This document shows, in pieces, positions 8,491 to 50,053 of a DNA stretch of 50,053 nt; within the stretch, counting starts at the first letter, position 1, and the number at the start of each line of letters is the position of its first letter. Position numbers and translations under genes: made by a program. The DNA comes from Akkermansia muciniphila (lineage in GTDB: Bacteria > Verrucomicrobiota > Kiritimatiellia > RFP12 > UBA1067). The DNA lies in NCBI GenBank assembly GCA_945870145.1, contig CAMBQV010000002.1, forward strand, positions 1-50,053, in the 5' to 3' direction. The notes under the pieces were generated by a model, which made no database searches, was not told where the DNA came from, and saw only the letters and a list, made by a program, of their open reading frames with translations.

Positions 8491-8567
8491 AATAACGCAA
8501 TAACGCTCGTTACGTATTCGTAACCATTCGGCGAATGCCGAAAGCGAAGCGGTAATAACGCAATTCT
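8491..8567. repeat. Word-array element (aataacgcaat-type plus gcgaa-type) abutting the stop codon of the 8568 gene
   Basis: aataacgcaataacgc at 8491-8506, hairpin gttacgtattcgtaac, cattcggcgaatg, then gaaagcgaagcggtaataacgcaattct ending at 8567. The stop codon (cta, i.e. TAG on the minus strand) is at 8568-8570. Confidence 0.5.
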
Positions 8568-9827
8568 CTACACGCGCAGCCCCTCCAACCGCCCATCAAG
8601 CCGTTCCGTGTCCTTGATGATCTCATCCCAGGTAATCACTTTCCCTGTATAGGCCGCCTTACGTCCCATGATCGTGATCAGGCAGCTCTGGACACTGGGT
8701 GCGACGGTCAGATTGGAGCAGTCACCCTTCTTAATCGCATCATAGAAGGCGAGCACATTGTTAAAGGCTCCCTCCTTATAGATCTGCTTTGTCTCACCGC
8801 CCCGATAGAAATTTTCTCCGCGGATCATGACATTACCGCCGTACTTCGCCTCAAGTACGCCCTTGGAGCCGAAGACGCGGCAGACAATACCATCCGGCTG
8901 TGTGCCATGTCCATCGAACTGGCGCGAACTAAAGCCTATGCCCACATTGTTGGGATACGTGAACTGGACGGTGAAATGATCCCAGCAATCACCTGTATGT
9001 TTGCGAACCTTACGACCGCCCGTTCCGTAAGCACTCACAGGCGGCGTCTGACAGACCCAATTCATCACGTCCAGGCTATGAATGTTCTGTTCCGTGATGA
9101 TGTCTCCCGAAAGCGCCTTGTCAAAGAGCCAATTCCCCAGCCGACCCTCCGGACCTTCATGCTCCGCATTACGATCAAACCCTCCGCAATGATAGGAGAC
9201 CTCCCCAAAGACCAGTTCTCCGATTGCGCCGGCATGTACGCGTTTAATGGTCTCCTGGAAAACTGGCATAGCACGTGTCTGAAAATCCACGAGAAAACTG
9301 AGCTTCTTCTCGCCAGCAAGCTTGACCGTGGCTTCAATGGAACGGCAGCCGGGAACATCCACGGCGATCGGCTTTGCAAGATAGACATGGACGCCTGCAT
9401 CAACCGCAGCCGCAGCTTGTTCCGGATGGAAAAACGGCGGCGACATGATCGCCAGCACATCCGGTTTTGTTTCCAGTGCGCGCTTGTAGCCATTTAAACC
9501 CGAGAAACAGCGTTCCTTGGCCAAGCCAAACGATTGGCCCATCTTATCAGCTTTCGCTTGAAAGTAGTCGGCAACCGCAGTGATTTCATAACCGCCATGC
9601 TGTTTCAGGAGACTTGCGATAAAGGTTCCGCGTCCCCCGCACCCCACAATGGCGACCTTGATCTTCGATCCCGTTAAACTGATTACAGGTGCTAACGGCT
9701 TCGATTCCTGCGCCAGAAGTGGCGATACAACAGTCGCAGCCCCCATCGCGGCCACAAAATGGCGTCGCGAAAAATAGGTCGTAGTTGATAAATGATTATA
9801 CTGAACAGTCATAATGATTATACCCAT
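8568..9827 (-). CDS. Tat-exported Gfo/Idh/MocA family oxidoreductase
   Basis: 419 aa. Twin-arginine signal YFSRRHFVAAMGAATV. Rossmann motif KVAIVGCGGRG. Alternative start at M6. Confidence 0.85.
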   Translation of the reverse strand: MGIIIMTVQYNHLSTTTYFSRRHFVAAMGAATVVSPLLAQESKPLAPVISLTGSKIKVAIVGCGGRGTFIASLLKQHGGYEITAVADYFQAKADKMGQSFGLAKERCFSGLNGYKRALETKPDVLAIMSPPFFHPEQAAAAVDAGVHVYLAKPIAVDVPGCRSIEATVKLAGEKKLSFLVDFQTRAMPVFQETIKRVHAGAIGELVFGEVSYHCGGFDRNAEHEGPEGRLGNWLFDKALSGDIITEQNIHSLDVMNWVCQTPPVSAYGTGGRKVRKHTGDCWDHFTVQFTYPNNVGIGFSSRQFDGHGTQPDGIVCRVFGSKGVLEAKYGGNVMIRGENFYRGGETKQIYKEGAFNNVLAFYDAIKKGDCSNLTVAPSVQSCLITIMGRKAAYTGKVITWDEIIKDTERLDGRLEGLRV

Positions 9828-10670: not shown

Positions 10671-10801
10671 CGTGTGGTACCACACGAGGTAGGAGGTGTC
10701 AGGGAGGAGGGAGGAGATAAAACTCCTGCTTCCTACCTCCTACTTCCTACCTCCTACCTTCTTTGGGTGCTGATTCAACAAAGTTGAATCGTACCCAAAG
10801 A
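10671..10801 (+). other. Three stacked hairpins immediately 3' of the AraC-like gene
   Basis: Perfect palindrome cgtgtggtaccacacg at 10671-10686. Purine-word arm 10687-10716 pairs with pyrimidine-word arm 10723-10759 across the loop ataaaa. A nested hairpin at 10760-10801 pairs tctttgggt with acccaaaga and gattcaac with gttgaatc. Confidence 0.6.
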
Positions 10802-14074: not shown

Positions 14075-14093
14075 AAACAGGATAAGTATTGTA

Positions 14094-14194
14094 TTTCGGA
14101 ACCACAAAATCCACAAAAATCACAAACTTTATTTGTGGACCTCATAATTAGGGGTTCCAAAGTTTAGAAACGTGCCATGTCGCTTCTTCCTGTG
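14094..14194 (-). pseudogene. Remnant of a second GxxExxY cassette (arm plus last 19 codons)
   Basis: 101-bp unit, ~85% identical to 14195-14295. It reads KKRHGTFLNFGTPNYEVHK-stop, against KKRHGMLLNFGAPKYEVHKYIL-stop in the intact gene. The first 33 nt (tttcggaaccacaaaatccacaaaaatcacaaa) are identical in both units. Confidence 0.7.
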
Positions 14195-14630
14195 TTTCGG
14201 AACCACAAAATCCACAAAAATCACAAAATGTATTTATGAACCTCATATTTTGGGGCTCCAAAGTTCAGTAACATGCCATGCCGCTTCTTCGTGGCCTTCA
14301 AATAATGTAAAACCTGAGCCTCGTTTTCGCCCGACAGCGCTTTTGCAGCCTTTAGTTCAACAATAAACAAGTCATTAACCATTAAGTCGGCAACATAGTC
14401 GCCAACAACAAAATCATCCTCATCATAGACTTTAATTGCCACCTGCTGTTCAACAGAGCAACCAGCCTTTCTCAAACGATGTGCTAATGAATTTTCGTAA
14501 ACCTTCTCAAGAAATCCATTACCAAAATACTTATGAATCTCAAAACCTGTCTGTCTAATCACATCTGCCAATGCGTAAACATCATTCATTTTTTAACCCC
14601 TTTTGTGCCTTTTGTGGATTTTGTGGTTCC
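14195..14630 (-). mobile_element. GxxExxY gene cassette bounded by inverted word-array arms
   Basis: Arm ggaaccacaaaatccacaaaaatcacaaa at 14199-14227 pairs with ttttgtgccttttgtggattttgtggttcc at 14601-14630. The outer 21 nt are perfect reverse complements. The gene's stop codon lies inside one arm, and its ATG is 11 nt from the other. Confidence 0.5.
14221..14589 (-). CDS. GxxExxY family protein (PD-(D/E)xK-like)
   Basis: 122 aa. GNGFLEKVYENSL is the eponymous GxxExxY motif. IVELKA and the C-terminal LLNFG motif are typical of the family. Confidence 0.85.
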   Translation of the reverse strand: MNDVYALADVIRQTGFEIHKYFGNGFLEKVYENSLAHRLRKAGCSVEQQVAIKVYDEDDFVVGDYVADLMVNDLFIVELKAAKALSGENEAQVLHYLKATKKRHGMLLNFGAPKYEVHKYIL

Positions 14631-17186: not shown

Positions 17187-17376
17187 TTTTCATGACGCGC
17201 TGTGTTATTGAGCCAACCTCTCTCAGAGAAGACCACCTCCCCCCAACAAAATGATATAAGAATAGAGGATGGTACAAGTGCAGTCAAGAACCTAACTATT
17301 TGGATAACGCGGCTATTCAATGCGATGGAAGCCACCAGCTGTGCATACAACAAGCTCCAAACGGGCAGTCGCTCGG

Positions 17377-17446
17377 CGGGGATACCCTTGCCCTCTGCGC
17401 GTGCTTATTCGCGCGCGTTTATTCGAACCGGGGGTTCTCATCCCGT
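17377..17446. repeat. Repeat B copy 1
   Basis: cggggatacccttgccctctgcgcgtgcttattcg...gggttctcatcccgt. It is the same unit as 17597-17649 with a 14-nt internal duplication. Confidence 0.7.
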
Positions 17447-17506
17447 AAAAAAAGAAAGCCCAAAGTGATTTTTCACTTTGAGCTTTTCATTTTTCCACTT
17501 AAAAAG

Positions 17507-17525
17507 TGGCGGGGACGACGGGATT
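17507..17525 (-). repeat. Partial copy of the tRNA-Asp 3' end (att-like direct repeat)
   Basis: tggcggggacgacgggatt equals the last 19 nt (including CCA) of the tRNA at 17715-17733. With flanks, the identity is 22 nt (17504-17525 vs 17712-17733). Confidence 0.8.
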
Positions 17526-17596
17526 GGCGCTCTTTCGCTGTCGCTCATCGCTCTCGTCCGGATTACCGGCCGAGCGTTAAGCAGGCGTTCGGGCTA

Positions 17597-17649
17597 CGGG
17601 GATATCCTTGCCCTCTGCGCATGCTTATTCGAACGGGTTCTCATCCCGT
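17597..17649. repeat. Repeat B copy 2
   Basis: cggggatatccttgccctctgcgcatgcttattcgaacgggttctcatcccgt. Confidence 0.7.
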
Positions 17650-17655
17650 CGGAAA

Positions 17656-17689
17656 TAAAAAAGCTGCAAACTCCTTCGAGTTTACAGCT
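17656..17689 (-). terminator. Rho-independent terminator after tRNA-Asp (minus strand)
   Basis: 12-bp stem, 17662-17673 paired with 17678-17689, loop cttc. The single non-Watson-Crick position is a G-U pair only in the minus-strand RNA. A U-run follows on the minus strand. Confidence 0.6.
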
Positions 17690-17714
17690 TTTTGCCTCTA
17701 TCTTAAAAAGAAAG

Positions 17715-17791
17715 TGGCGGGGACGACGGGATTCGAACCCGCGACCACCGGATCGACAGTCCGGTGCGCTAACCAATTGCGCCACGTCCCC
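17715..17791 (-). tRNA. tRNA-Asp (GTC), CCA encoded
   Basis: Cloverleaf parsed by hand: GGGGACG-TG-GCGC-AATTGGTTA-GCGC-A-CCGGA-CTGTCGA-TCCGG-TGGTC-GCGGG-TTCGAAT-CCCGT-CGTCCCC-G-CCA, 77 nt. Confidence 0.95.
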
Positions 17792-17875
17792 GCAAAAGTT
17801 CGTGTACTTTAGCAGATTAACGCTTCACTCTGCAATAACAAAAATAAAAAAATTCGCCGAACTGTTCAGTCACCG

Positions 17876-19615
17876 TTACTTACGCCAGACGGGAACGAAG
17901 AGGATGCGCGCACGCTCCTCGGTGCCATCTGCCAAAATACCCCAGAGGAGTGACCATTCGTAACGTTCTGTTTTCTCATGGCCACAGCGCAAATAGGAAG
18001 CCAGAACAGGAATACGCCAATAAGTAAAGTCTGAGCGCACATCCTTCACATGGCGCATCAGGCCGAAGCAGGTGCTGAAATGATGTCGATCCGGATTCTC
18101 TTCCACATTCAGGAGCCAGGTCCTCAGAAGGCTGAAACGATAAAAGGATGACCCTGCGTCGGCCTCCATGAGCCAGCCCCCTAAGAGATCCATTCCTGCA
18201 GAGTGACCTTCATAAGATGGAAAGCGCACAGGCCACGGGAGGTCATTCCCCCAGGAGGCCAACCAGGAGGGGCTTTCCACTGTCACAGGCGTCTTTAAAG
18301 CACGGGATGCCTGATTCTCGCAAGTTTTCTTCTCCGAGGCCTCCTCTGACCAGACCGCAGCGACTAGACGTCCCTCGCGCTGAACGCTCCAGCTCCCCTC
18401 CTTAAAGCGCTCCTTGAGATAATCTTCCATGCGCCATCGAAAAGAGCTTGCAAAACCAGGGCGTTCCCAATAGCTCAACCAGAGTCTCTTTTGCTTGCCG
18501 TCTCCACCTTTCGTGATAAATATCCGATCCCCCATCCAGCCCTTCAGAAAGTCATAATCATCCGCGGCAACAATTTTCTCCCCGCACAACAAGAGCGCGA
18601 TGCCCATCACACCGAGTGAATTGGTCGTGACCTTCTCGTACGTTCTGCCCAAAAGTGCTGGTTCCGGAGCAAAGGTAGCGGGAACAAACCCCTTAAGATA
18701 CCGACGTTCTGGGTAGAGGATCTCCGCTGTTGTCTGTGGCATCCGTCCATCATAGATGCCATTAAGCGCCTGCCATCCTGCATCGCGCCGAAGACGGTTA
18801 CAAAAGACTGCGCCATCGAGGTAGGGACGTGTCAATGCTCCCGTGATAAAAGAAGGGCACCACTTCAATTGCTCGGAGACCTCTGACATGTCAGCATCCT
18901 GCATCAACGATTCAACTCCCCATGCCCCGAAGGGCGTAGCCGTATTCAAGGGAACACCATCTAAAATGCTATCCACGCCGAGCAAAACAGCATTACCCTC
19001 GACAAAGGAGGTCAGCGCTTGTGAACGATCAAAATCTAATTCCGCCTCCTTGGTCCGCTTCGTGAGACCATAGTGTGAGTCTTCGATAGCATGACAGAAC
19101 TCATGGACGTAGACAAACCGTTCCATGCCTTGAAAACCAGCAAGGGATAGCCCATTTGTCTTCTCCTGCTCTTCTACATAGACAAGTCGACGCTCTTCAT
19201 GATCATAATATGCAGCTGCCTCCTCCTGCATAAAAGAGAGAAGCAACGCTTTTAGGGATTGCTCCTTATGTAGCACTCGGAACTGCCGCAAAAGAAGATC
19301 TGACTCCTCCAAAGAGGCCTTGTTATGCGGCTTCTCAAGGTCCTTCTCCATGGAACGCCTCAACTCCTCTTTTGTCTCTTCGCGGATGGCAACCTCGTGT
19401 TGGAGCTTCAAACCCCTCAGTTGTACAGCCATCGCCTGATACTCACGGATCTGGGCCTCCTTGTTATCGCCTTCAGAGATCTCCCTGGGGAGCATCGAGC
19501 AGCCTGTCAACCAGAGAAGAAAAAGAGAAAGCCAAGCAGTAGCAGTTGGCAGTACCAGTTGGCAGTTCGGCCACGTTATAGTTAGGAATCCGCTATGGTG
19601 CTCATTACTTTTCAT
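17876..19615 (-). CDS. Putative lipoprotein with HExxH zinc-metalloprotease motif
   Basis: 579 aa. Lipobox LWLTGC at about residue 38. VYVHEFCHAIED motif. The N-terminal codons overlap a word array (19536-19570), so the start is uncertain. Confidence 0.55.
   Translation of the reverse strand: MKSNEHHSGFLTITWPNCQLVLPTATAWLSLFLLWLTGCSMLPREISEGDNKEAQIREYQAMAVQLRGLKLQHEVAIREETKEELRRSMEKDLEKPHNKASLEESDLLLRQFRVLHKEQSLKALLLSFMQEEAAAYYDHEERRLVYVEEQEKTNGLSLAGFQGMERFVYVHEFCHAIEDSHYGLTKRTKEAELDFDRSQALTSFVEGNAVLLGVDSILDGVPLNTATPFGAWGVESLMQDADMSEVSEQLKWCPSFITGALTRPYLDGAVFCNRLRRDAGWQALNGIYDGRMPQTTAEILYPERRYLKGFVPATFAPEPALLGRTYEKVTTNSLGVMGIALLLCGEKIVAADDYDFLKGWMGDRIFITKGGDGKQKRLWLSYWERPGFASSFRWRMEDYLKERFKEGSWSVQREGRLVAAVWSEEASEKKTCENQASRALKTPVTVESPSWLASWGNDLPWPVRFPSYEGHSAGMDLLGGWLMEADAGSSFYRFSLLRTWLLNVEENPDRHHFSTCFGLMRHVKDVRSDFTYWRIPVLASYLRCGHEKTERYEWSLLWGILADGTEERARILFVPVWRK
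19536..19570. repeat. ggcagt-type word array
   Basis: gcagtagcagttggcagtaccagttggcagttcgg. It shares the exact 18-mer gcagtagcagttggcagt with 33659-33676. Confidence 0.6.
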
Positions 19616-19708
19616 GTGAACCTTTCAAGAAGATGGAAAAGATTAAAGCACCCCCTTCATAAAGTAAAGCAGAATGGCCATTTTCATAAAGAATTCGTTC
19701 GATTCGCT

Positions 19709-19737
19709 TTGACTTTAGCCAGCCATTCTGTTAATTT
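19709..19737 (+). promoter_or_regulatory. Candidate sigma-70 promoter for the tRNA-Pro/tRNA-Asp pair
   Basis: TTGACT (19709-19714), a 17-nt spacer, TAATTT (19732-19737), located 22 nt upstream of tRNA-Pro. Confidence 0.4.
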
Positions 19738-19759
19738 GAAACCCGTTTTTATTTATCAT

Positions 19760-19836
19760 CGGAGCGTAGCGCAGCCTGGTAGCGCGTTTGGTTCGGGACC
19801 AAAAGGTCGAGGGTTCAATTCCCTCCGCTCCGACCA
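19760..19836 (+). tRNA. tRNA-Pro (CGG), CCA encoded
   Basis: CGGAGCG-TA-GCGC-AGCCTGGTA-GCGC-G-TTTGG-TTCGGGA-CCAAA-AGGTC-GAGGG-TTCAATT-CCCTC-CGCTCCG-A-CCA, 77 nt. Confidence 0.95.
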
Positions 19837-19849
19837 TTTTTTATCCTGC

Positions 19850-19926
19850 GGGGACGTGGCGCAATTGGTTAGCGCACCGGACTGTCGATCCGGTGGTCGC
19901 GGGTTCGAATCCCGTCGTCCCCGCCA
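19850..19926 (+). tRNA. tRNA-Asp (GTC), CCA encoded
   Basis: 77 nt, the exact reverse complement of 17715-17791. Confidence 0.95.
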
Positions 19927-19942
19927 TTTTTTATGGCGTTTC

Positions 19943-26619: not shown

Positions 26620-29586
26620 TTACCGCCATATGGACTTAATCGGGTGAAGCTCAAGATTCACCAGTTTCACATTTCCTCCAATGGCAGTCAGATTCAAGCT
26701 ATCGTCTTTGGGATCGAATGCGACCTGCTGACTAAGAGAGAAGACTCCGCCATCGGAAAAGATTTCAATTGATGACCAATCGACAAGCATGCGTATCGTT
26801 AGAAGCTGGTTTGAATCCGGGCGTAATACCGGTGACTGCTTGTCGCCAAATTTGTTTTTCTCAACACCTTGATAGATGATTTTTTGTCCAGCAATATCAT
26901 ATTGATAGCTGACGTTCGCGATTTGAAACACAACCTTTTCTGCCGTGGCACCCTTCAAGTCGAAGGTTAGGGTCATGTCGAAGGTCTTTGCCCGGACACC
27001 CGTGAGGATATTATCAGCGCCCACTTCCCTCTGACCTATTCGAACAGGAGTGCCGTTATACAACGCTTCAATAGCCGCAATAGGGCTCCGAGTGACGCGC
27101 ATTTTACCATCACGTGTTACCAGTCCCAGTTCAACTGGAAAGGTCGCGTTCCGCTCCCAGGGTTCCTCGCCAATGCCACCGTTCCACTCGTCCATCCAGG
27201 CGAGTTGGATGTATTTCTTCTGGGGTAGTGTGTATGGGAAAAAGCACTGGCCCGCATAAAAGTCAGGCCCAACATCCATGAAGAGGCTCTCTGTGGACTG
27301 GTTCTCGTCAATAAAGCGCGTTCCATCAAAGTGACCAACAAGGTATTGGCCGGCGGCATCATAAATGACCCACTTCATGTTGTTCGGATCACCGTTAAGC
27401 GGGAGCTCCACAAGATCGGGGCATTCGAAACCAAACTTGATGTTACTCAGCTTTTCCCAGTTGATGAGATCCTTCGATCCGTAAAAAGTGGTGCCTTCTT
27501 CGTAAATGGCCATCACCCACTTTTTCGTCGGTTCATGCCAAATGACGCAGGGATCCCTCGGGACGGCGCCACGGGTGGGATTGGCGACAGGGTTTTTATC
27601 GTAGTTATTCCAGATTTTGCCCTTGTTATTACTCCAAGCGATGCAAGTGCCCACTTTGGTTCCTGTATAGAATGCGATCAGGGCGGAGTTTGTTGAGCCC
27701 GTGATTTTCGCTGCAACTGGCCCGCTAACCACAATTCCACTCCCTGAGTAAACCTGTTCTCCTGAAACGTTTTGCTTGGCGCCAGATGAGCGGGCATGGC
27801 TGTTTTTGCCAATTAAAGCGAGCCCATGATCGTTCCAATGGAGTAGGTCATCGGTGCTGGCATAGCCACCATCTCGATTGTTTTTTCCCCACTGATAGAG
27901 CATGTGATACTTGCCATCGAGATACCACAGGGCGTTTATATCGTTCATCCATCCATTTTGGGGTGAAAAGTGAAATTGGGGACGATAGGGTTCCTGATAA
28001 TCTGTAGCCTGGTAATGTCGATTGAACGGTGAGGCGCCCTCTAGCTTGGGATCAGAATATCCCCATCCCGCAGACATCAAAATCGTTCCCAGCAGGCAGG
28101 AATATGGTGCTGTTTTTACATGATTATTCACATTTTTCTTCACCGTGCGCCAATCGAGGCCTGTGCGCCGGGCGACTTCGCCATAACTACCATAACGTTT
28201 GAAGAGCCGCTGACAATAGCCCGCGCTCAGTTGTTGCGCTGACAACTCGCCTCGCTCAAATGCGGATAGCCAGACATCTTCACCTGCGGTCATATTCGTG
28301 TCTCCGCGATATTCGCCTGTCAGCAAAATACAGCGGACAGCTTGTTCCAGCTCTCGGACATTTCCTGGCCAGGCGTAGTCACATCCGACTCCTTTTTCAA
28401 GTGCTCCCAAAACAGCCGTGAGCGTAATCGACTCCACATCCCCTCCCAGCCGTGACAGGATATGACGGATGAGCATCTCCAGTTCATGCGGAGACTCCTG
28501 AAGCCGCAGCCGCAACGTTGGCACCTCGATCTGATCCGAACAGAGACGATAGAAGAAGTCGTCACGAAATGTACCCTCGCGCCGTAAGGTGCCGAGTTCA
28601 CGATTCGTCGCGGCGATGACACGACCTTTGAATCGACAGACCTCATGGCTGCCGACTGGCGAGAAGGTGCGTTGCTGCAAGACTTGTAAGAGTTTAATCT
28701 GAATCGGCTCTGAAGCATCACCGATCTCATCCAAGAAGATCGCCCCATGTGGACTGCACCGCGCAAACACACCCTCGTGCCGCTCCACCGCACCCGTAAA
28801 GGCGCCCTTGCGATGGCCGAACAACTCGGACTCAATCAGTGTCTCCGAAAACTGCGACAGATTGATCGCCACAAAGGCGCGTGTGAAACTCTCGGCAAAA
28901 GCTCGTTTCCCTGAAAGGAAGGGAATGAACCCTGAACGCCCCAACGCAGCAGCGACCGCGCCCTTGCCTGTGCCGGTCTCGCCAAGCAACAAGGTCGAGA
29001 AATCCTCCATCCGATTCCATAGTCCGCGCACATACCAGCGCATATCATGCGTGAAAATATTGTCCCAGAGTCGCTTGCGGAGTTGCTTCATACAGGGGCT
29101 TTCCCCCACGAGACTATTTGATATAAAATAAAAGGCCCGTCGCATCTGATAAAAGATGGCGATATACTGCTCAGCCTCTGTGCGCGAAAACCCATGCTGT
29201 ACCAATTTTTCAAAGAGTCCGACTGCAAAGGGCGCCTCACATACAGCATCCCCTGCCTCACCCTGCCGTCGGATCAACGCATCGAAATCCGGCCGATGCC
29301 GATGAAACAAACTAAAGAGTATCCCCGCCGTCACCAGCTCCTGATCCGCCTCTGTCTCAAACGAACCCTGTGCACACACACCTGTCGAAACCGTTAGCCG
29401 CTTGAGCCGTTGTTCCAATTCGGTTAAGAGTCCCTGCAACGCTTCATCCCATTCGCCCGTCGCGACCCCCAGAACACGCATGTCGGCCTCGCGCCGGGCA
29501 TCAGTGAAGGGATTGATAAAGGCTGATTGTTGTACCGCCTCAAAGAACTGCCGATCCTCAGAGGAGAGCTTTCTCTTGTTTTTCAT
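26620..29586 (-). CDS. Sigma-54-dependent activator (AAA+ plus Fis-type HTH) in one frame with a GH32 beta-fructofuranosidase domain
   Basis: 988 aa with no stop. bEBP motifs: GETGTGKG, ESELFGHRKGAFTGA, IFLDEIG, WPGNVRELE, and HTH GEVARRTGLDWRTVKK. The hydrophobic linker APYSCLLGTILMSAGWG follows, then GH32 motifs WMNDIN, RDP and FECPD. Confidence 0.8.
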   Translation of the reverse strand: MKNKRKLSSEDRQFFEAVQQSAFINPFTDARREADMRVLGVATGEWDEALQGLLTELEQRLKRLTVSTGVCAQGSFETEADQELVTAGILFSLFHRHRPDFDALIRRQGEAGDAVCEAPFAVGLFEKLVQHGFSRTEAEQYIAIFYQMRRAFYFISNSLVGESPCMKQLRKRLWDNIFTHDMRWYVRGLWNRMEDFSTLLLGETGTGKGAVAAALGRSGFIPFLSGKRAFAESFTRAFVAINLSQFSETLIESELFGHRKGAFTGAVERHEGVFARCSPHGAIFLDEIGDASEPIQIKLLQVLQQRTFSPVGSHEVCRFKGRVIAATNRELGTLRREGTFRDDFFYRLCSDQIEVPTLRLRLQESPHELEMLIRHILSRLGGDVESITLTAVLGALEKGVGCDYAWPGNVRELEQAVRCILLTGEYRGDTNMTAGEDVWLSAFERGELSAQQLSAGYCQRLFKRYGSYGEVARRTGLDWRTVKKNVNNHVKTAPYSCLLGTILMSAGWGYSDPKLEGASPFNRHYQATDYQEPYRPQFHFSPQNGWMNDINALWYLDGKYHMLYQWGKNNRDGGYASTDDLLHWNDHGLALIGKNSHARSSGAKQNVSGEQVYSGSGIVVSGPVAAKITGSTNSALIAFYTGTKVGTCIAWSNNKGKIWNNYDKNPVANPTRGAVPRDPCVIWHEPTKKWVMAIYEEGTTFYGSKDLINWEKLSNIKFGFECPDLVELPLNGDPNNMKWVIYDAAGQYLVGHFDGTRFIDENQSTESLFMDVGPDFYAGQCFFPYTLPQKKYIQLAWMDEWNGGIGEEPWERNATFPVELGLVTRDGKMRVTRSPIAAIEALYNGTPVRIGQREVGADNILTGVRAKTFDMTLTFDLKGATAEKVVFQIANVSYQYDIAGQKIIYQGVEKNKFGDKQSPVLRPDSNQLLTIRMLVDWSSIEIFSDGGVFSLSQQVAFDPKDDSLNLTAIGGNVKLVNLELHPIKSIWR

Positions 29587-43888: not shown

Positions 43889-43918
43889 AATTGCACACAG
43901 CGAATACGCTTGTCCCAA

Positions 43919-44048
43919 ATTGCCTTATTGCCTGATTGCCTTATTGCGTTATTAGAGCTTCGCTTCCAAAAATCGTCAAATACTTTCGTCCTTGACCACA
44001 AGAGAATGTGATTTCTCAAATAATAAGGCAATAAGGCAATAACGCAAT
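43919..44048. repeat. Hairpin-armed element (attgcc/aataaggcaat word arms) with a degenerate core
   Basis: Left arm 43919-43953, right arm 44019-44048. attgccttattgcc pairs with ggcaataaggcaat as a perfect 14-bp stem. The element ends 4 nt before the purD stop codon. Confidence 0.6.
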
Positions 44049-44052
44049 TCTC

Positions 44053-45330
44053 TTACCGATTAAACGCGCGACGCGCGATATCGTTGCGATATTGAGCGCC
44101 CTCAAAGGTGATAAGCTTAGCCACCTCATACGCACAACCCACGGCACTCTTAAGATCAGTACCTAGCGCAGTGACGGCCAGTACGCGTCCGCCAGCGGTG
44201 ACGACCTTGCCATCCTTGAGCGATGTTCCCGCATGGAAGACGGTAGCGCCCTTAACCTGTGCGGCTGCCTCAAGTCCTTTAATCTCGTCACCCTTTTTAT
44301 ACGTGCCAGGGTATCCCCCTGCTGCCATGACAATGGTCGCGGCGGCCTCGGGACGGACCTGAATGAGGCCGTCATGCAGGATACCATCAATACACGCCTG
44401 GAGCGCAGGAATCAAGTCCCCAGCGATACGCGGCAACACAGCTTCGGTCTCGGGATCACCAAAACGCGCATTGAACTCCAGCACGTTGATACCCTTCTTG
44501 CTAATCATGAGACCCGCATAAAGCACGCCTTTGTAGACAATACCGCGCTTCTTGAGTTCACGCACCACGGGCAGGATGATCTGCTCCTTGATGTAGGGGA
44601 TAAGATCTTCGGTCACAACAGGCGCAGGCGAGTAGGCTCCCATGCCACCGGTGTTGGGACCTTGGTCATTATCAAAGATTCGCTTGTGATCTTGTGACGA
44701 GGGCAGGATTACGGTGTGCTCGCCATCGACGAGGGCCAAAATGGATGCCTCTTCGCCTTCCAGAAAATCCTCGATCAAAACTTCGGCCCCGGCCTTACCA
44801 AAAATGGCCTCCACGAGCATGGAGTTAATCGCTTCAACTGCCTCGGCGCGTGTCTGAGCAATCACGACACCTTTTCCAGCGGCCAAACCGTCGGCCTTGA
44901 TAACCACAGGTAAATCGAATTGATCCAATGCAGCAATGGCATCCGTGGCATTTGTGAACCCGAACGAACGCGCCGTCGGCACACCTGCAGCGGTCATGAC
45001 GTCTTTTGAGAAGAGCTTACTGCCCTCCATACGCGCACCTGCCTGGCACGGACCGAAAACGCGGAGCCCCTCAGCGTTAAAAGCGTCAGTGATCCCCAGG
45101 CAGAGCGGCACTTCAGGTCCGATCACGGTCAGATCAGGCCGATTAACCTTTGCCCATGCGACAAGGCCAGAAACATTTTCAGCTGAAATGGGAACAGACT
45201 CTGCAACACCAACAGTCCCCGCGTTTCCAGGTGCGCAAAACAGCGTTGGCTTACACGAATCCTGAGACAATCTCCACGCAATGGCATGCTCACGTCCGCC
45301 ACCTCCGACAACTAAAATTTTCATGGTCAT
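44053..45330 (-). CDS. purD: Phosphoribosylamine--glycine ligase
   Basis: 425 aa. KILVVGGGGREHA and ATP-grasp motifs. Confidence 0.95.
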   Translation of the reverse strand: MTMKILVVGGGGREHAIAWRLSQDSCKPTLFCAPGNAGTVGVAESVPISAENVSGLVAWAKVNRPDLTVIGPEVPLCLGITDAFNAEGLRVFGPCQAGARMEGSKLFSKDVMTAAGVPTARSFGFTNATDAIAALDQFDLPVVIKADGLAAGKGVVIAQTRAEAVEAINSMLVEAIFGKAGAEVLIEDFLEGEEASILALVDGEHTVILPSSQDHKRIFDNDQGPNTGGMGAYSPAPVVTEDLIPYIKEQIILPVVRELKKRGIVYKGVLYAGLMISKKGINVLEFNARFGDPETEAVLPRIAGDLIPALQACIDGILHDGLIQVRPEAAATIVMAAGGYPGTYKKGDEIKGLEAAAQVKGATVFHAGTSLKDGKVVTAGGRVLAVTALGTDLKSAVGCAYEVAKLITFEGAQYRNDIARRAFNR

Positions 45331-48357: not shown

Positions 48358-48390
48358 TAATAAGGCAATAACGCAATAAGGCAATTCTCT
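48358..48390. repeat. aataaggcaat-type word array abutting a stop codon
   Basis: taataaggcaataacgcaataaggcaattctct ends at 48390. The stop codon of the 157-aa gene is at 48391-48393. Confidence 0.55.
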
Positions 48391-48864
48391 TTAAGCAATC
48401 GCGAAAGTCAACTTACCTGGGCTGAGATCAATCGAACGGATTTTACCGCCCAACGTGAACGCCTTGTTTTGCAGAAGAGTCGGAAAATGGAGCAAGAAGG
48501 AGTCCCCTGATACCGTCAACCCCGGAATCTGCGGAATCTGATTGGCAAGAGCCGAAACAATAGCCTCACCGCCACCACTGAAAAAGGAGGCTTTCACTTT
48601 GGTTAAGCGTACCACCAGAGTCTCCCCCCCATCTGCAGGGGTCAACTCACAATGTCCTTCAAAGGGAACTGGCAGAAAGCCCATCACAAATTTTCCAGAA
48701 ATAGTGATCTCCCCCTTACCAAAACAGAGGTTCACATCTTTGACATTCTTGATTTGGTTTTGGGCCTCAGCCGGCATATTCGCCTTCTGCATCTCCCAGG
48801 TCCGCTGAACCGCGGCCACGACTTCCTTGTCTGTTACTGTCAAACTCAATGTATGAATGGTCAT
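48391..48864 (-). CDS. Hypothetical protein
   Basis: 157-aa ORF with an SD-like GGAAGGA upstream. No family recognised. Confidence 0.5.
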   Translation of the reverse strand: MTIHTLSLTVTDKEVVAAVQRTWEMQKANMPAEAQNQIKNVKDVNLCFGKGEITISGKFVMGFLPVPFEGHCELTPADGGETLVVRLTKVKASFFSGGGEAIVSALANQIPQIPGLTVSGDSFLLHFPTLLQNKAFTLGGKIRSIDLSPGKLTFAIA

Positions 48865-48878
48865 TTTATTCCTTCCAC

Positions 48879-49058
48879 TGGCGTCCCATAGGTCCGCCGA
48901 GGCTGTAGCATTTTAGGCTGTAGGCTATTAGGTAAAATGGCGGAAAATGGTTTGTTTAATATCATTAATGCCATTGGTTGAAAACAAACAGAAACACATG
49001 TACTTCCTAACAGTCTACAGCCTAAAAACCTAAAAACCTGCGTCCTATGGGACGCTAA
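48879..49058. mobile_element. 180-bp MITE-like hairpin-armed element with a 14-bp target-site duplication
   Basis: Direct repeat tttattccttccac at 48865-48878 and 49059-49072. Terminal inverted repeats tggcgtcccatagg... and ...cctatgggacgctaa, plus inner ctgtagg/cctacag word arms. The core holds the 14-codon ORF MAENGLFNIINAIG-stop (48937-48981). Confidence 0.7.
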
Positions 49059-49059
49059 T

Positions 49060-49854
49060 TTATTCCTTCCACAAAAAACCCGTTAACGGGGATGAAGCAT
49101 CAGCCATGGCGCGAGGCGCACGTGGCCCTGCTTGGCGAGCAAGTTCAGCAGCCTCAACCGCTTTTGAAAAGGCGAGAGCCATCTTCACAGGATCCGCCGC
49201 AGCAGCGATCGCTGTGTTCACTAAAACGCAATCAGCCCCCATCTCAATGGCCTCCGCCACATGAGAGGGAAGTCCGAGTCCTGCGTCTACAACAACAGGC
49301 ACATTCGCATTTGCGATGATGATCTCAATCATATCCCGCGTACGGAGTCCCCTGTTCGTCCCAATCGGAGCACCCAAGGGCATCACGGCAACAACACCGA
49401 CCTCCTCAAGTCGCTTAGCCAGCACAGGGTCGGCATTCATGTAGGGAAGCACTTTGAAGCCCTCTTTCGCCAAGACCTCGGAGGCCTTGAGTGTCTCAAT
49501 CGGATCAGGGAGTAAATGATGAAGATTAGGGGTCAGTTCAAGCTTAATCCAGTCAAAGCCTCCGGCGGCACGCGCCAGACGCGCAATACGAATCGCCTCC
49601 TCTGCCGTGCGTGCCCCGCTCGTGTTCGGCACGATCACGACCTTATTCGGATCGAGTTTGGAGATAAGCGGATCGCCTTCGGGATTTTTATCCAAATCAA
49701 CACGACGAAGCGCCACCGTCACCAATTCACAGCCTGAGACCTCGATTGCCTGGCGCATCAGCTCGTGCGAACCAAATTTTCCGGTTCCAATAAAGAGTCG
49801 CGACCGGAATTCGCGACCTGCAATGATAAGTGGTTTCATGAAGGGCAATATCAT
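49060..49854 (-). CDS. thiG: Thiazole synthase
   Basis: 264 aa. LFIGTGKF, the catalytic-lysine region WIKLE, and VMPLGAPIG. Alternative start MKPLII at 49839. Confidence 0.93.
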
Positions 49855-50053
49855 ACAACAATTATCCCGCTGTTGTAAGGCGAAAAATGCGAAAACTACT
49901 GCCCACGCGGTACGTCATAATTAAGGACACTGAAAACAAAATTGGTCGTCCATGACGAAAAGCGCTTCCGTCAAATACGTGGACACCGTAAATTAGAGGC
50001 ATGAAAACGATGTCCAGCACCACGTTCAAAGACAACTTTCCTCGTTACAAGCG

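Follow-up and report, generated by a model that had tools for sequence, protein, structure and literature searches.

What lies between thiG, which encodes thiazole synthase, and the gene that follows it in the 50,053-nt contig analysed here (the whole stretch is referred to as the window), and did it arrive there by transposition? At this junction, a 180-nt insert is enclosed by two copies of a 14-nt sequence, TTTATTCCTTCCAC (48865-48878 and 49059-49072), which are its sole two matches in the window even with up to two mismatches allowed (0.25 expected). The right copy includes the last thiG codons and the stop codon (49060-49062, TAA in reverse complement), and the left copy, which includes GGAAGGA, adjoins the ATG (48862-48864) of an ORF of 157 aa. 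A preliminary description of the locus had read this arrangement as a MITE-like insertion that split a formerly tight thiG junction, and the inverted repeats, arms, flanking repeats and empty site reported below support that reading. The insert is very probably one copy of a family of non-autonomous DNA transposons (miniature inverted-repeat elements, MITEs) spread through Kiritimatiellia/PVC genomes.

Structure of the insertion and the empty site in relatives

The locus comprises the following features, the element being read from its A end to its B end.

48391..48864, minus strand: 157-aa conserved hypothetical gene, which starts 1-3 nt past the thiG stop in relatives
48867..48875, no strand: left copy of the 9-bp target-site duplication TATTCCTTC (register and length from 30 family copies; empty site in relatives)
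48876..49060, plus strand: putative MITE of 185 nt that starts with CACTG and ends with TAATT (full-length homologues in other MAGs are 70-90% identical)
48876..48898, plus strand: A end, with the 5-mer CACTG, the inverted repeat GCGTCCCATAGG (48881-92) and the degenerate palindrome half TCCGCC
48900..48933, plus strand: subterminal arm on the A side, made of AGGCTGTAG-type word repeats and strongly conserved between copies
48934..49005, plus strand: variable centre with a chance mini-ORF (48937-48981, MAENGLFNIINAIG followed by a stop); centres follow MAG lineages and have no conserved frame
49006..49039, plus strand: B-side subterminal arm, with CTACAGCCT words and CCTAAAAA twice, complementary to the A-side arm
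49040..49060, plus strand: B end, with the perfect hairpin GCGTCC-TATG-GGACGC (which includes the inverted repeat at 49044-55) and the 5-mer TAATT
49061..49069, no strand: right copy of the 9-bp duplication TATTCCTTC, formed by the final codons of thiG and stop-codon bases one and two
49060..49854, minus strand: thiG, thiazole synthase (PF05690, 3.5e-106), the upstream gene of the split junction

The two halves of the terminal inverted repeat (GCGTCCCATAGG at 48881-92 and CCTATGGGACGC at 49044-55) are complementary at 12/12 positions, and the inner arms (48906-32 and 49006-32; 27 nt), built of AGGCTGTAG-type words, are 85% complementary. The gene-strand RNA of the insert region is predicted to fold as one long hairpin (-77 kcal/mol, z = -5.5). 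The 50-kb window contains a single copy of the element. Pfam scans of the 37 ORFs covering the window detected only housekeeping genes and no transposase, in agreement with the preliminary description, which had seen none.

Relatives were found by exact look-up of the 157-aa protein and then through its homologues at 94%, 82% and 78% identity, all of which were traced to their contigs. The four contigs found by exact look-up (L001-L004, from four samples, 99.3-99.6% identical to the window) all contain the insert, whereas it is missing at the orthologous site in the three more distant lineages (L005-L013), in which the thiG stop and the 157-aa gene are separated by 1-3 nt. In L005 and L006, whose 157-aa protein is 94% identical, the thiG stop is followed by the next ATG as GTGGAAGGAATAATATG, with the aligned junction ...GGTTTTTTGTGGAAGGAATAATATG..., and the junction is equally tight in L007 and L008 (...GTGGAAGGAGTGAGAGATG...) and in L011 and L013 (...GTGGAAGGAATAGAAAATG...). 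The window reads ...GTGGAAGGAATAAA-[180 nt]-GTGGAAGGAATAAAATG... in the same alignment. The tight junction that had been predicted to be restored by removal of the insert is thus present in relatives, as GTGGAAGGAATAATATG and its variants. Moreover, BLAST aligns L005 to the window as two HSPs that share 13 nt at the junction, a classic sign of target duplication. Since all three outgroup lineages are empty, insertion in the lineage of the window is the parsimonious reading; it is later than the split from the L005 lineage (82-87% DNA identity) and fixed in the 99%-identical strains.

A separate observation concerns the contig end. The alignment of the contigs L001-L003 (99.4% identical) with the window ends at position 49906, which is 52 nt upstream of thiG; the segments beyond it are 49907-50053 in the window and 8049-8195 in L001. 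Given that the window is an entire 50,053-nt contig, a strain-variable breakpoint falls at its end.

A dispersed family and the length of its target-site duplication

A scan of one genome per species with the exact pattern GCGTCCCATAGG-N(5-25)-AGGCTGTAG matched 66 loci, 64 of them in 21 PVC/Kiritimatiellia MAGs (up to 12 loci per MAG) that are labelled Kiritimatiellia, Kiritimatiellae, Verrucomicrobiota, PVC group, 'Lentisphaeraceae' or 'bacterium'. The two matches in Acidobacteriota were rejected: they lack the other features of the family, lie in GC-rich surroundings and correspond in number to about the chance expectation. Full-length homologues of the window element are 70-90% identical to it (e.g., 89.6% for L030, 86% for L032 and 83% for L040). 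Two further copies are present in the metagenome that holds the strain of the window (three loci in total), one of them with an 8/9 duplication beside a start codon. No copies were found in PLSDB plasmids or IMG/VR viral contigs. The sequences used for comparison all come from metagenome assemblies, where repeats are frequently collapsed or truncated.

Read inward from each end, family members present a 5-mer CA[C/G/T]T[G/A] (most commonly CACTG, CATTA or CAGTA), the palindrome GCGTCCC-ATA-GGGACGC and two to three AGGCTGTAG-like words. CACTG is terminal at 16 of the 60 ends examined, and most ends have CA at their tip. The two ends of the window element are related without being symmetric. Conservation is strong in the arms, and the centres fall into seven multi-copy clusters and three singletons, which track the MAG lineages. 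The 30 copies for which both ends are present measure 163-215 nt, and none of them is gene-sized.

Some copies are nested or adjacent: partial elements form a 777-nt composite at L021 (480-1257), and at L082 (4335-6072) two lie 1.4 kb apart, together with a fragment of a third, which suggests that these elements insert into or beside one another. In the MAG CAZTAJ, an element is found 1-15 nt past the stop of paralogous ORFs of ~850-900 aa at three loci (L036 2553-2735, L055 284-461 and L073 1796-1958). A GH71 domain is present in the two paralogues that were checked, and L036 joins them by BLAST similarity only. Duplication of the gene along with the element, or else repeated insertion behind such genes, would account for this pattern.

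The flanks of the 30 two-ended copies were compared in every register. Only one register is prominent, that in which the 5-mers belong to the element and the adjoining 9 nt to the flanks; it gives 86% identity per position, as against 22-36% in out-of-frame registers. The duplication is perfect (9/9) in 18 copies, 8/9 in three and 7/9 in four; none is recognisable in the remaining five, perhaps because of age or rearrangement. For the 21 copies that reach 8/9 or better, positions within the 9 bp match at rates of 95-100% and those outside at 14-62%. The 9-mer itself is different at every site, with targets of 71% A+T. Because the duplication of the family is 9 bp long with sharp edges, the element of the window is delimited at 48876-49060, and its true duplication is TATTCCTTC (48867-75 and 49061-69).

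The preliminary description had taken the whole 14-nt repeat as the target-site duplication and had expected such duplications around other copies. Flanking duplications are indeed present there, but they measure 9 bp, not 14, and the remainder of the window repeat corresponds to matches of the element ends to the flanks. The 14 nt consist of the 9 bp plus TT and CAC. The two target bases left of the duplication are the same as the TT that ends the element, and the three to its right are the same as the CAC with which the element starts; TT and CAC both belong to the terminal 5-mers of the element (TAATT and CACTG). Flank extensions of 1-4 nt exist in other copies, and the five bases of the window are the longest among the 21 near-perfect copies. 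These extra matches reflect either coincidence or a weak target preference, and the excess of CA after the right-hand duplication (10 of 30 copies) hints at such a preference. The family value of 9 bp removes the concern, raised with the original observation, that 14 bp would be too long for a target-site duplication, and with it a casposon-like reading.

Two alternative origins of the direct repeat can be weighed against these data. One is a genuine 14-bp duplication produced by a long-stagger integrase (casposase/Cas1-like, or an IS with long variable duplications), in which case this copy would be unlike the rest of its family. The exact length of the window repeat and the 13-nt overlap at the L005 empty site speak for it; we nevertheless regard it as very improbable, as the duplication stops sharply at 9 bp in the 20 other near-perfect copies, the five extra bases belong to conserved terminal 5-mers (CACTG, and TAATT resembling TAATG) that are present where flanks mismatch, and the empty site of L005 departs from the repeat at one of these extra bases (A versus T). 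The other is site-specific recombination by an integron-, tyrosine- or serine-recombinase-like system, the direct repeat being a duplicated core site. This seems hardly credible: the palindromic GC-rich ends do look like recombinase binding sites and insertion at gene boundaries is recurrent, but flanking 9-mers that differ at every locus leave no common core, and the targets are merely loosely AT-rich.

Flanking genes, RNA structure and the mini-ORF

The duplicated 9 bp, which read GAAGGAATA on the gene strand, include the Shine-Dalgarno (SD) sequence used by the 157-aa gene and, of the thiG stop codon, bases one and two; base three is provided by the last base of the element, an A at position 49060. 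For this reason, thiG keeps its exact stop and the 157-aa gene, which here lies 194-195 nt downstream of thiG, keeps its ribosome-binding site with the native SD. A consensus end (...TAATG/TACTG) would have lengthened ThiG by six residues. As judged from the sequence, both genes stay intact, and their translational coupling would be lost. The B-end hairpin (49040..49060) is terminator-like on both strands, and on the gene strand a terminator-like stem and U-run (GCGUCC-CAUA-GGACGC-AGGUUUUU) directly follows the thiG stop, at the start of the intergenic segment that can fold into the long predicted hairpin. The expression of thiG and of the 157-aa gene may be altered by this arrangement.

Searches of Rfam gave no match to the element, either at gathering score or at E<=1, and RNAalifold detected compensatory change in only 3 of 40 arm pairs. 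It is thus the sequence of the arms, and not their pairing, that looks conserved, which would argue against selection on RNA pairing.

The centre of the element carries a mini-ORF of 14 codons on the plus strand, 3 nt past the A-side arm, in which the preliminary description had seen a GxxExxY-like start. The ORF exists, but its kinship with GxxExxY proteins did not survive comparison: of 16 homologous copies from other genomes, 15 have ACG, ACA, ATT or some other triplet in place of its ATG, and its frame is broken by stops in several copies; each of the six frames is interrupted by stops among the aligned copies. The ATG and a similar mini-ORF are retained in L083, a second copy from the same metagenome, as expected from recent common descent. 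With 14 codons, the mini-ORF is too short to be scored against PF13366. A small ORF on the opposite strand (MCFCLFSTNGINDIKQTIFRHFT followed by a stop) seemed conserved in two copies and was rejected, as most others contain stops. Searching all loci by tblastn with the GxxExxY protein of the window identified no PDDEXK_3 gene within family copies, the sole match lying 4.7 kb from an element. We conclude that the mini-ORF is a chance ORF and not a GxxExxY remnant, and that the element is without coding capacity.

A GxxExxY gene proper is present elsewhere in the window (14221-14589, minus strand; PF13366 at 6e-32), within a cassette (14090-14630) between 30-nt inverted arms made of CACAAAA words. 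This cassette lies 5 nt past the stop of the upstream transporter gene, with no target duplication seen, and includes a 101-nt tandem duplication (14090-14190 and 14191-14291, 87%) that repeats one arm and the last ~22 codons of the gene. Like the element at thiG, it is intergenic, lies beside a stop codon and has short-word arms able to form a long hairpin. In contrast to that element, it carries a gene and has other arm sequences, shares no sequence with it and has neither the terminal 5-mer nor the palindrome nor a flanking duplication.

These observations bear on two further explanations of the insert. It had been proposed that short, arm-only derivatives arise by internal deletion of hairpin-armed GxxExxY (PDDEXK_3) cassettes, the insert being one of them with N-terminal codons retained. 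The position of the 14-codon ORF just beyond the A-side arm, its counterpart in L083 and the occurrence in the same window of a true GxxExxY gene between inverted word-repeat arms all fit this idea. It is nevertheless close to refuted, given the loss of the ATG and the stops in copies from other genomes, the lack of any PDDEXK_3-like ORF in the family copies, the uniformly small size of all 30 two-ended copies and CACAAAA arms that are unrelated to those of the family. For the same reasons of differing arms, termini and flanks, the insertion does not demonstrate that the GxxExxY cassettes are mobile, as had been claimed; a false lead is thereby removed, since the event at thiG says nothing on their mobility. 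It is also highly improbable that the segment is immobile here, an ancestral intercistronic structured RNA or terminator that relatives deleted between direct repeats. The strong predicted hairpin and the terminator-like stem with its U-run straight after the thiG stop speak for such an RNA, but the three lineages at greater distance (94%, 82% and 78% protein identity) all have the empty site, the element is found at dozens of unrelated loci with its own 9-bp duplication at each, and the Rfam and covariation results point the other way.

The window contains other repeats and hairpins. GGCAATAA/CGCAATAA word repeats ending in ...AATTCTCT abut the stops of three minus-strand genes (8537-8570, 43918-44054 and 48358-48391), the second of them forming a hairpin with an inverted partner. 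The one after the 157-aa gene occupies the same place in relatives with a 78%-identical protein (L011-L013, 3477-3516); given this shared position at such distance, it is a conserved gene-end repeat of old origin and separate from the MITE. At 10680-10766, just past the stop of an AraC-type regulator gene, GGAGGTAGGA/CCTACCTCC words form an imperfect hairpin of 36 nt that represents another sequence type. A 579-aa ORF without Pfam match lies between two inverted copies of tRNA-Asp(GTC) (17715-17791 on the minus and 19850-19926 on the plus strand; 99% identity over 84 nt), and ~200-nt-spaced repeats are found at 17359-17660; the region 17359-19930 may be an integration or rearrangement remnant. 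Finally, in a single 988-aa ORF (26620-29586), a sigma-54 activator AAA+ domain is joined to GH32 N- and C-terminal domains; this ORF corresponds either to an unusual fusion or to two merged genes.

Mobilisation and relationship to known elements

The assignment to MITEs rests on a combination of features: a length of 185 nt, terminal inverted repeats (12/12 complementary, with related 5-mers and subterminal arms of 27-34 nt), a fixed 9-bp duplication that varies from site to site, no coding capacity, multiple copies, and a filled versus an empty site. Such an element is probably mobilised in trans. By analogy with other DNA transposons, a transposase encoded elsewhere would recognise the conserved ends, cut an AT-rich target with a 9-bp stagger and join the element to it, and gap repair would then produce the duplication TATTCCTTC. 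At the present locus, the target would have been the AT-rich junction ...GAAGGAATAA|A|ATG, where a gap of 1 nt separated thiG from the gene after it. The contrast between conserved arms and freely diverging centres fits recognition of the ends by a protein. Only two features, the inverted repeats and a duplication of fixed length (9 bp), point to the class of this enzyme.

In the window and in the 0.56 Mb of family loci, we detected neither an autonomous partner nor a transposase with matching ends, and the vicinity of unpaired ends and the intervals between distant ends with a common 9-mer (recurrence within 7 kb) likewise gave no autonomous element. Three candidates were discarded: L046 contains ordinary genes, L020 an AAA_14/DUF4143 ATPase and L024 nested copies. 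Clustering of the 758 ORFs from all loci for multi-copy proteins, with Pfam annotation, yielded ABC transporters, GH71 proteins, NAD kinase and housekeeping proteins, and nothing transposase-like. The absence of the partner is weak evidence, because MAG assemblies usually drop IS copies. It is possible, although unlikely, that the family is moved by a type of transposase not yet recognised (or host-encoded), or that it has been co-opted as intercistronic hairpins or terminators that uncouple operon genes of Kiritimatiellia. This idea is based on class-wide arms with interchangeable, lineage-specific centres, the location at stop/start boundaries in operons and the lack of a partner IS.

As a MITE insertion, the thiG locus offers a clean and datable transposition event with both filled and empty sites. 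The signature of the family, CA[C/G/T]T[G/A]GCGTCCCATAGG ends with a 9-bp duplication, can be used to annotate assembly-breaking repeats in Kiritimatiellia/PVC MAGs and in the hunt for the responsible transposase. It may also serve to study how insertions are tolerated in translationally coupled junctions, stop codon and ribosome-binding site both being preserved in the present case.

In text searches of the literature, we came across no account of MITEs from Kiritimatiellia or Verrucomicrobia and no useful information on GxxExxY. Several known groups resemble the family in part. Correia elements of Neisseria, the enterobacterial ERIC/IRU sequences and RUP elements are bacterial MITE-type families with TA (2 bp) duplications. 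Compared by description, Correia and ERIC elements share with the present family a length of 100-200 bp, terminal inverted repeats, non-coding sequence and many intergenic copies; they are often co-transcribed with their neighbours as long hairpins, and exhibit target duplications and filled/empty polymorphism between relatives. The present family differs from Correia, ERIC and RUP elements by a 9-bp duplication that is not TA, by palindromic ends with AGGCTGTAG words and by its PVC/Kiritimatiellia hosts, and it has no match in Rfam or PLSDB.

Duplications of 9 bp are typical of IS1, IS10/IS50 (IS4 family), the IS903 group and ISLre2, and are also made by MITEAba12 of Acinetobacter. As far as descriptions allow a comparison, these elements resemble the family in their fixed 9-bp duplication, short inverted termini and loosely AT-rich targets; the family differs from the IS in having no associated transposase gene, and we know of no IS end that matches the termini 5'-CA[C/G/T]T[G/A]GCGTCCC. 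Casposons, Cas1-solo transposons with 14-15-bp duplications, have similar inverted termini and recall the apparent 14-nt repeat of the one copy in the window, whereas the family duplicates 9 bp, has no Cas1 and occurs in many copies, the one in the window being 185 nt long. REP/BIME sequences with RAYT, and the palindromic elements derived from IS200/IS605, insert without target duplication and have no long terminal inverted repeats. They share with the family GC-rich, intergenic, palindromic hairpins in multiple copies, and are set apart from it by its 9-bp duplication and its two-ended inverted-repeat structure. The elements of Kiritimatiellia/PVC genomes thus apparently form an undescribed MITE family, of a known kind of element that will not surprise a specialist.
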